Sequence record: OR424388.1
From: Escherichia phage HEMP5
Strand: one strand, 5' to 3'
Length of the DNA stretch: 64,000 bases
The position numbers and the translations under genes were made by a program. Within the stretch, counting starts at the first letter, position 1, and the number at the start of each line of letters is the position of its first letter. Below the pieces are notes generated by a model. It was not told the origin of the DNA. It made no database searches and saw only the letters and a program-made list of their open reading frames with translations. Positions 54,954-55,524 of the stretch are shown here, piece after piece.

Positions 54954-55187
54954 TTATTTTTTACGAAAAATTGATTTATTTTCTGCTGCCCATTTTTCAA
55001 TAACTGCAGCAGGACCAGTAACAACAATTTTATCACCGTAAACTTCTGCGGCGAGTTGACCGAAATTATCTAATGCATCACGAAGAACTCCATGAGGCAT
55101 TTCACCCATTTTATCTTTCTTGCCGGTGTAAATAAACTCAACTTTTGCATCAGAAGATTCAGCGATAAATTCTTTGAAAGTTTTCAT
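54954..55187 (-). CDS. internal protein (IPI-position, CTS MKTFKEFIAE)
   Basis: 77 aa from ATG; CTS N-terminus; body not obviously like recalled T4 IPI, so possibly a lineage-specific internal protein. Confidence 0.7.
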   Translation of the reverse strand: MKTFKEFIAESSDAKVEFIYTGKKDKMGEMPHGVLRDALDNFGQLAAEVYGDKIVVTGPAAVIEKWAAENKSIFRKK

Positions 55188-55224
55188 TTTAGTTTCCATT
55201 CGATTGTTTTGTTTTGATAGGGTA

Positions 55225-55254
55225 ATAGTATCACAACTAAAACCCTATGTAAAC
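55225..55254 (-). promoter_or_regulatory. T4-early-type promoter (-35 GTTTAC, -10 TACTAT)
   Basis: Minus strand upstream of the IPI-position gene. Confidence 0.55.
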
Positions 55255-55266
55255 AACTTTGTGAAA

Positions 55267-55524
55267 TTATTTTAAATCTTCTAATCGTTTCTTCATCTTA
55301 GAACCATTTTTAGCAATTTCTCCTGCATCGGAGCATAATGCTAAAAGTGCTTTAACTTTAGTTTGGTCTCCTTTAAAAGATGAAGGATCGACTGCAGCAG
55401 CAAGTTCTTTAATACGAGAGAAAAGACGCTCAGCTTCAGCTAAAGCCATTCCAAGCTTTACTTCCATACCGTGAGAAGATTCAGTGATAGTAGTTTTTGT
55501 AGCAAACTCTTTGAAAGTTTTCAT
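55267..55524 (-). CDS. internal protein, paralog of IPII (CTS-like MKTFKEFATK)
   Basis: 85 aa; clear similarity to the IPII-like gene at 47222-47503 (LAEAERLFSRIKELAA... vs [16 protein letters not shown]...). Confidence 0.7.
   Translation of the reverse strand: MKTFKEFATKTTITESSHGMEVKLGMALAEAERLFSRIKELAAAVDPSSFKGDQTKVKALLALCSDAGEIAKNGSKMKKRLEDLK

Follow-up and report, generated by a model that had tools for sequence, protein, structure and literature searches.

In phage T4, internal proteins begin with a capsid-targeting sequence (CTS) that sends them into the prohead, where the gp21 protease cuts at (L/I)xE, and the mature protein is injected into the host together with the DNA. The names Ip5 and Ip6, used for two internal proteins of T-even phages, reportedly go back to Repoila et al. 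in 1994 (EMBO J 13:4181), and modular shuffling by way of PeSL elements in T4-type phages is said to have been described by Arbiol et al. in 2010. In the PeSL arrangement, conserved early promoters, each with a stem-loop placed between its -35 and -10 elements, flank the variable genes, and the internal-protein locus was named as the first case observed when the shuffling model was set out (Comeau et al. 2014, PMC4122927). IPI*, the mature form of T4 IPI, has been proven to be part of the virion (PDB 2JUB; PMC4437046), and each of the three internal proteins of T4 inhibits a GmrSD nuclease of its own (PMC12373910). More recently, the gene product Bas37_0260 of another phage was reported in a preprint to be needed against McrBC specifically (bioRxiv 10.1101/2025.11.20.689424).

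Here we analysed a 64,000-nucleotide stretch of Escherichia phage HEMP5 (OR424388.1), the whole of which is called the window below. Judged by its similarity to sequenced phages, the window comes from a Tequatrovirus (T-even phage): over positions 54700-56060, its DNA identity is 99.9% with the Yersinia phages PYps32T and PYps47T and 98% with Yersinia phage PST, this segment is matched by 628 phage records, nearly all of them Tequatrovirus, and the part from 57B to trna.4 is covered to 80% or more in at least 234 records. The locus studied here is ordinary, even textbook, and is largely explained by what is already known: it consists of two named and widespread cassettes, ip5 and ip6, in a PeSL-flanked hypervariable slot. 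Little of it is new, and the value of the analysis lies in corrected labels and in the linking of names, namely of Ip6 with the Bas37_0260 family.

The slot between 57B and trna.4 and its borders

The genes of the region are transcribed in the order gene 1, 57A, 57B, ip5, ip6, trna.4 and trna.3, all from the minus strand, and the ip slot is bordered on its left by the conserved 57B and on its right by the conserved trna.4 (Table 1). T4 has the single gene ipI where the window has ip5 and ip6, and the same slot contains ip5 and ipI in RB14, ip5 and ip7 in T2, ip6 in Bas45, and ip5 and ip6 in PST, Bas37 and the window. A preliminary description of the window had reported two adjacent CTS-bearing genes in an internal-protein locus, and this holds: both lie on the minus strand in the 57B-trna.4 slot, where T4 has ipI, and both products start with MKTFKEF. 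In phage PST, the counterparts of ip5 and ip6 are annotated as ipV and ipVI, respectively. Short ORFs of 33-44 aa that overlap the locus on the plus strand were not treated as genes. Rfam gave no match at E <= 1 on either strand of 53000-57500, and PADLOC reported nothing.

Table 1. Features of the ip slot and related genes elsewhere in the window, with the matches or properties on which each assignment is based.
Feature	Position	Strand	Match or property
Gene 1, dNMP kinase	56294-57019	minus	
57A	56052-56294	minus	
57B = Acb1 (anti-CBASS nuclease family)	55597-56052	minus	Pfam PF23474, 2.6e-60; synteny with T4, PST, RB14, T2
Repeat copy upstream of ip5, PeSL-type border	55542-55612	minus	near-identical to T4 57B-ipI intergenic region
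Promoter upstream of ip5	-35 55583-55578; -10 55560-55555		TTTACA, 17 nt, TG-extended TACTAT
Stem-loop overlapping ip5 -10	55545-55574		13 bp; fold -18.5 kcal/mol, z = -3.4
ip5, 85 aa, starts MKTFKEFATKTTITE	55267-55524	minus	phrog_3499, 1.2e-49
Repeat copy upstream of ip6	55212-55282	minus	stem-loop core 55217-55248, z = -2.85
Promoter upstream of ip6	-35 55253-55248; -10 55230-55225		TTTACA, 17 nt, TG-extended TACTAT
ip6, 77 aa, starts MKTFKEFIAE	54954-55187	minus	phrog_8111, 2e-49, residues 1-77
Third repeat copy, degenerate (61%), upstream of trna.4	54911-54981	minus	stem-loop 54915-54942, z = -3.39
trna.4, small predicted membrane protein	54710-54898	minus	phrog_1692, 6.4e-35; synteny
trna.3	54309-54710	minus	
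Ip5-family paralog (RB69ORF127c type), 93 aa	47222-47503	minus	phrog_3499, 1.2e-46
CTS genes	2475-2639, 46357-46935, 47222-47503, 54954-55187, 55267-55524	minus	regular-expression scan
beta-glucosyl-HMC-alpha-glucosyltransferase (T2/T6-type)	7154-8002	minus	tblastn 97-99% identity; Pfam TAGT, 1.7e-9

Scanning all six frames of the window with a regular expression gave exactly five CTS-type starts, the number claimed before, each at the start of a minus-strand ORF, against a chance expectation of 0.045 (mean of 200 shuffles) or 0.07 (from amino-acid frequencies). Ip5 and Ip6 share with the T4-type internal proteins an N-terminal CTS of about 10 residues with the pattern MKT(F/Y)xEF. At the end of the leader, the (L/I)-x-E motif predicts gp21 cleavage between IAE10 and S in Ip6 and between ITE15 and S in Ip5, and the predicted mature forms have 67 aa with a pI of 8.0 (Ip6) and 70 aa with a pI of 9.2 (Ip5); the same rule applied to T4 IPI* leads to residue 20, which is the first residue of PDB 2JUB (residues 20-95). 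A literature search found no report of virion proteomics for Ip5 or Ip6. We also collected 36 T4-like loci from IMG/VR via the 57B gene, listed all their CTS-bearing ORFs, removed the leaders and clustered what remained. About 19 unrelated families of CTS proteins occur downstream of 57B in these loci, the largest being Ip6, with 13 metagenomic ORFs in addition to that of the window.

Each of the two genes had also been credited with an early promoter of its own, and a TG-extended promoter is indeed present upstream of each, inside a 71-nt direct repeat that aligns with the intergenic DNA found in this slot in T4 and RB14. A generic promoter scan showed no overall enrichment in the region (6 found vs 7.3 expected). 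The repeat occurs in three copies, of which two contain the ip5 and ip6 promoters and the remaining one overlaps the 3' end of ip6 and forms the right border of the slot. Every junction has the same motif, TTTCACAAAGTTGTTTACAT followed by a stem-loop, whose stem overlaps the -10 element, and then by GTGATACTATTA, and the ip5-ip6 junction is almost identical to the T4 ipI-trna.4 junction as far as CCCTATC, after which it diverges into the ip6 leader. The repeat even includes the ends of coding sequences: D-L-K-stop closes both 57B and ip5 and is followed by an identical flank, and we came across no earlier description of a repeat reaching into the last three codons in this way. With an early promoter and a stem-loop on both sides, and with borders that T4 and RB14 share around different inserts, ip5 and ip6 belong among the PeSL-flanked cassettes.

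Ip6 and McrBC

The protein encoded at 54954-55187 had been described as lineage-specific, with a body that did not match T4 IPI. The latter point is correct, as only residues 1-12 of the two proteins align, and they fall into separate clusters once the leaders are removed; an end-to-end alignment with T4 IPI, named beforehand as the finding that would speak against lineage specificity, was not obtained. The label itself has to be abandoned on other grounds. The protein is Ip6: it matches phrog_8111 over its full length and is 71-97% identical to proteins named Ip6 (71% to those of VR7 and VR20), and tblastn matches to it come from 246 records named as phages of Escherichia, Yersinia, Shigella, Salmonella, Citrobacter, Pseudomonas and Proteus, in addition to its leading place in the 36 IMG/VR loci. 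Among eight aligned sequences with 71-97% identity, 37 columns are invariant. A longer ip6 ORF starting at ATG 55199 (METKMKTF...) was considered and rejected, since the extension is not conserved (METK, MEIK, MKLENK) and the ribosome-binding spacing fits ATG 55187, whose leader, GGAAA-N-AAAATG, is common to ip6, ip5 and T4 ipI.

Outside T4-like phages, the Ip6 family appears from database searches to be essentially absent. The Ip6 alignment, used as a profile against 1.84 billion representatives, returned 7 matches, two of which were repeat-protein artefacts (P0020 and P0022), and it revealed no cellular homolog and no clue to the origin of the family; the Ip6 allele of the window itself is absent from a collection of 15 billion proteins. 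Word-index homolog searches for Ip6 and Ip5 were shallow, with 11 and 5 matches, respectively. The AlphaFold (AF2) model of Ip6 (pLDDT 80) predicts a ferredoxin-like beta-alpha-beta-beta-alpha-beta arrangement, and its top match in BFVD is Ip6 of phage VR7 (TM 0.92, a near-identical predicted fold). The model of Ip5 (pLDDT 82) predicts three helices, and a Foldseek comparison with the PDB gave no match with E < 1. None of the structural neighbours of the two models was informative, a PDB sequence search with Ip5 and Ip6 gave only chance-level matches (E >= 0.76), and Pfam had nothing for Ip5, Ip6 or the paralog of Ip5 at the e locus.

By protein identity and gene position, the Ip6 family is the family of the McrBC inhibitor Bas37_0260. 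Bas37 is Escherichia phage KarlGJung (MZ501089), in which bas37_0260 is a 234-nt gene between a 258-nt ip gene and trna.4, that is, at the same site between ip5 and trna.4 as ip6 of the window. Its product is 92% identical to the Ip6 of the window over all 77 residues and has the same type of CTS, and the product of the neighbouring gene, bas37_0261, is 100% identical to the Ip5 of the window. The six substitutions in Bas37_0260 relative to Ip6 of the window are F4Y, K5Q, S11T, S12A, A14V and V48D, four of them in the mature part; at position 48, where the window has V, all seven aligned homologs have D or E. According to the preprint (10.1101/2025.11.20.689424), transposon insertions in bas37_0260 were strongly depleted on E. 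coli K-12 BW25113, and were depleted neither on a K-12 derivative without mcrA, mcrBC and mrr nor on clinical isolates, and a clean deletion of the gene made the phage sensitive to McrBC specifically. The McrBC result comes from this single 2025 preprint and was obtained with a protein that differs from Ip6 of the window at 6 of 77 residues. The older name Ip6 is not used for Bas37_0260 in the accessible part of the preprint. With the two names linked, a function could be assigned to this family across some 246 sequenced phages.

McrBC cuts hmC DNA and does not cut glucosylated DNA, and in T2 and T6 about a quarter of the hmC is left unglucosylated. The window has the T2/T6-type beta-alpha-gt in the place that beta-gt occupies in T4 relative to gene 42, and therefore, from what is established for T2 and T6, part of its hmC would remain unglucosylated and be a substrate of McrBC. 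This also supplies a rationale for the inhibitor, since ip6 is seen exclusively alongside the T2/T6 type of glucosylation, by which some hmC stays unglucosylated. We examined co-occurrence with concatenated queries by comparing the number of records with the number of places matched, relatedness being uncorrected: ip6 and the beta-alpha-gt of the window gave 490 records and 706 places, and hence 216 records with both, and ip6 and T4 beta-gt gave 257 records and 257 places, and hence none with both. Only about 25 records have beta-gt, and many of those are of T4, so that relatedness could produce the exclusion of ip6 and T4 beta-gt; the co-occurrence with beta-alpha-gt, in which kinship is likewise uncorrected, fits the McrBC rationale. 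T2 grows on K-12, and because it has beta-alpha-gt without ip6, Ip6 is not the sole route around McrBC. The preprint also reports beta-alpha-gt in Bas37, as in the phage of the window (10.1101/2025.11.20.689424).

By analogy with Bas37_0260, the type IV restriction enzyme McrBC of the host is what Ip6 of the window most likely counteracts. The preliminary description had proposed anti-restriction effectors of unknown specificity and had pointed to GmrSD-type systems for testing; an anti-restriction role is still the best reading for Ip5 and Ip6, but the GmrSD part does not hold for Ip6, whose 92%-identical ortholog is reported to counter McrBC.

Ip5 and its paralog at the e locus

The exact 85-residue sequence of Ip5 is found in the UniRef cluster 'Ip5', whose representative is Q38630_BPT6 of phage T6, and it is 99% identical to Ip5 of T2 and 92% to Ip5 of RB70. 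T4 IPI aligns with Ip5 over leader residues 1-26 and nothing more, and with the leaders removed the two proteins form separate clusters. The gene at 55267-55524 had been called a clear paralog of an IPII-like gene at 47222-47503. The paralogy is well supported, with 48% identity over 84 aa in BLASTP (E = 1e-24) and membership of both proteins in phrog_3499, and it was already known, since the GenBank record of RB14 states the similarity of Ip5 to RB69ORF127c, with which the exact sequence of the 47222-47503 protein clusters. The name IPII, on the other hand, is misplaced. T4 IpII aligns with the 47222-47503 protein only over the 11-residue CTS and becomes a singleton cluster when the CTS is removed, and in PHROGs neither Ip5 nor its paralog matched any other internal-protein family, so that the gene is better labelled as Ip5-family, RB69ORF127c type. 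The IPII-like label seems to have been positional, and even the position differs from that in T4, where the order is e, ipIII, ipII, denV; in the window it is e, the 47222-47503 gene, a denV remnant and ipIII. The ATG of the 47222-47503 gene overlaps the stop codon of the lysozyme gene e (ATATATGA). Ip5 and the e-locus paralog occur together in at most 12 of the 496 records that have either.

Ip5 is present in hundreds of phages, and the one concrete lead to its role is strain CFT073. In the supplementary tables of the HIDEN-SEQ preprint (10.1101/2025.11.20.689424), insertions in bas37_0261 show an about four-fold depletion on UPEC CFT073 (mean counts from 263 down to 61, log2FC -2.09, adjusted p 0.00000) and no change on CFE299 or in the comparison that follows it, probably CFE303. 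This depletion goes undiscussed in the main text of the preprint. CFT073 carries the GmrSD homolog c5421 in its immigration control region (PMC4437046), and to link the depletion to c5421 is speculation. The GmrSD of ECOR21 restricts T2 in spite of its nearly identical Ip5, and on the GmrSD of ECOR17 T2 depends on Ip3 supplied in trans (PMC12373910); the UTI89 enzyme restricts T2 as well (PMC4437046). The most likely role of Ip5 and its e-locus paralog is to inhibit, once injected, another, strain-specific defence. Whether they are two diverged injected inhibitors of variants of one such defence, for example c5421 of CFT073, is doubtful, and we put it forward as a tentative idea; if true, carrying both Ip5 and the paralog would widen the host range of a phage.

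Readings of the locus and comparison with known systems

The explanation that we favour, and consider probable as a whole, can be put as follows. The hyperplastic 'ipI locus' of this T-even phage would hold two interchangeable cassettes, ip5 and ip6, with a PeSL-type border on either side of each, namely a conserved early promoter that contains a stem-loop, and the cassettes would be swapped by homologous recombination between these motifs in co-infecting phages, which would account for the differing contents of the slot in T4, RB14, T2, Bas45 and the group of the window, PST and Bas37. If the T4 paradigm applies, the N-terminal CTS would direct Ip5 and Ip6 into the prohead, gp21 would cut after IAE10 in Ip6 and after ITE15 in Ip5, and the mature proteins of about 7.4 kDa would enter the host together with the DNA and be active ahead of all phage gene expression. 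Ip6 would then neutralise McrBC, whose substrate would be the hmC left unglucosylated under the T2/T6-type beta-alpha-gt, and Ip5 and the e-locus paralog would inhibit another, strain-specific defence after injection.

An alternative, which seems unlikely to us, is that both Ip5 and Ip6 inhibit GmrSD-type (glucosyl-hmC-dependent) nucleases as T4 IpI, IpII and IpIII do, each acting on a different GmrSD variant. The two genes sit in the ipI slot, each of the three T4 proteins has its own GmrSD (PMC12373910), and the Ip5 mutants of Bas37 are depleted on CFT073, a carrier of the GmrSD homolog c5421 (PMC4437046). However, neither Ip5 nor Ip6 resembles IpI, IpII or IpIII beyond the CTS, and the knockout of Bas37_0260 is reported to be sensitive to McrBC specifically (10.1101/2025.11.20.689424). 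Furthermore, T2 has an Ip5 99% identical to that of the window and is still restricted by the ECOR21 GmrSD, still needs Ip3 on the ECOR17 GmrSD (PMC12373910) and is also restricted by the UTI89 enzyme (PMC4437046).

We consider it very improbable that Ip5 and Ip6 are structural core proteins, serving charge neutralisation or DNA condensation and ejection without any anti-defence target, in a locus that varies under little constraint. Their predicted mature forms are mildly to clearly basic, like DNA-associated head proteins, and Bas37 can do without either gene in the laboratory (10.1101/2025.11.20.689424), but the same data show strain-specific fitness effects, of ip6 on McrBC+ K-12 and of ip5 on CFT073, Ip6 is well conserved (37 invariant columns) and maintained in 246 records, and the T4 internal proteins with an assigned function are all nuclease inhibitors (PMC12373910). 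Hardly any weight falls on the idea that the CTS-like motif is a relic and that Ip5 and Ip6 are early cytoplasmic proteins, made after injection and left unpackaged. Five occurrences of the motif, all at ORF starts, stand against about 0.05 expected, the motif is kept in about 19 otherwise unrelated families of the slot, and the protease motif follows at the expected distance. In favour of the idea, each gene has its early promoter, and exact late promoters are missing immediately upstream of both, the closest one being located at 56650-56657 within gene 1, so that the sequence leaves the supply of protein for prohead assembly unexplained; T4 ipI, however, has the same promoter arrangement, and its product IPI* is proven in the virion. 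In host-range prediction for phage therapy, the set of ip cassettes is a practical marker of the type IV restriction systems that a T-even phage is able to pass.

Compared with known systems, the locus is closest to those of other T-even phages. Ip5 and Ip6 are named in the records of T2, T6, RB70, RB14, PST and VR7, and the window is another isolate with a common pair of alleles, arranged as in PST. T4 IPI/IPI* and Ip5/Ip6 share the genomic slot, the promoter and stem-loop borders, and the logic of CTS and protease, and they are similar in mature size, with 76 aa for T4 IPI* and 67-70 aa for Ip6 and Ip5; Ip5 also has the longer, IpI-type leader ending in ITE. They differ in the absence of any sequence similarity past the leader, and in the reported target, which is the GmrSD of CT596 for T4 IPI and McrBC for Ip6. 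With the PeSL system, the window shares the conserved early promoter with a stem-loop between -35 and -10 on the flanks of variable genes, and apart from the detail of the D-L-K-stop overlap, the two arrangements agree in all that we compared.

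Two Ip5-family genes with different transcriptional settings

The window carries two members of the Ip5 family of T4-type internal proteins, one beside the lysozyme gene e (the e-locus paralog) and the other, ip5, together with ip6 in the ip slot between 57B and trna.4, and the presence of both paralogs in one phage is uncommon. When the e-locus paralog was used as a tblastn query, 508 places were matched in 496 records, so that at most 12 records can hold two copies; in about half of these records the only type present is that of the e locus (≥80% identity), and in the other half it is Ip5 (<60% identity). 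The e-locus paralog does not have a promoter repeat of its own, its start ATG overlaps the stop codon of e (ATATATGA, 47500-47503, minus strand), and two exact late promoters lie upstream of e (TATAAATA, 48002-48022, minus strand). For these reasons, the e-locus paralog is probably expressed late, jointly with e. Unlike this gene, ip5 and ip6 have early promoters, and the exact late promoter closest to them is found only at 56650-56657.

Next to the e-locus paralog lies a 33-codon open reading frame, which presumably represents an N-terminal remnant of denV (endonuclease V). The closest relatives, phage Lutter (97%) among them, align to this region in two pieces that span ~2216 nt versus 1701 nt in the window, and a full-length endonuclease V is annotated in them. 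Because of this longer two-piece match and this annotation, most of denV appears to have been lost from the window through a deletion of ~515 nt.

Positions of the features considered in this part
Feature	Position	Strand	Remarks
Gene 61.1	2475-2639	-	54 aa; fifth CTS gene; directly upstream of primase gene 61 (1444-2472)
Candidate denV N-terminal remnant	47063-47161	-	33 codons; within intergenic stretch 46936-47221
e-locus Ip5 paralog	47222-47503	-	beside e
ip6	54954-55187	-	77 aa
ip5	55267-55524	-	85 aa
Gene 57B (anti-CBASS nuclease Acb1)	55597-56052	-	Pfam 2.6e-60; directly upstream of ip5

The ip slot and its neighbor 57B

Since the gene that immediately precedes ip5 encodes Acb1, the ip slot belongs to a small counter-defence cluster. 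57B and ip5 share their last three codons and stop (D-L-K-stop), and the 3' flanks that come next are also identical (55267-55282 and 55597-55612, minus strand); the recombination-prone repeat bordering the ip cassettes thus takes in the end of each coding sequence. In the HIDEN-SEQ transposon-insertion preprint (10.1101/2025.11.20.689424), supplementary file 8 lists bas37_0261, the phage Bas37 protein identical to window Ip5, as significantly depleted on UPEC CFT073 and as not significantly depleted in CFE299 or one further comparison; the main text makes no mention of the CFT073 depletion. Insertions in the Bas37 ortholog of 57B were likewise depleted on CFT073 with a log2FC of -1.56 and an adjusted p of 0.003 (10.1101/2025.11.20.689424).

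As for Ip6, the exact 77-aa protein had no match in a collection of 15 billion proteins, and the phage record that matches it best, PYps32T, has a single residue changed. Codon 48 (55044-55046) encodes Val, whereas the residue at this position is Asp or Glu in each of the seven aligned homologs.

Gene 61.1 as the fifth CTS gene

The fifth gene with a capsid-targeting sequence (CTS), 61.1, encodes a protein with the N-terminus MKTYKEFIKE|D and a tail rich in lysine and glutamate, and its exact sequence occurs in at least 1000 contigs. In the internal-protein literature examined, 61.1 is not among the named T4 internal proteins (Ip1-3); T4 also has 61.1.
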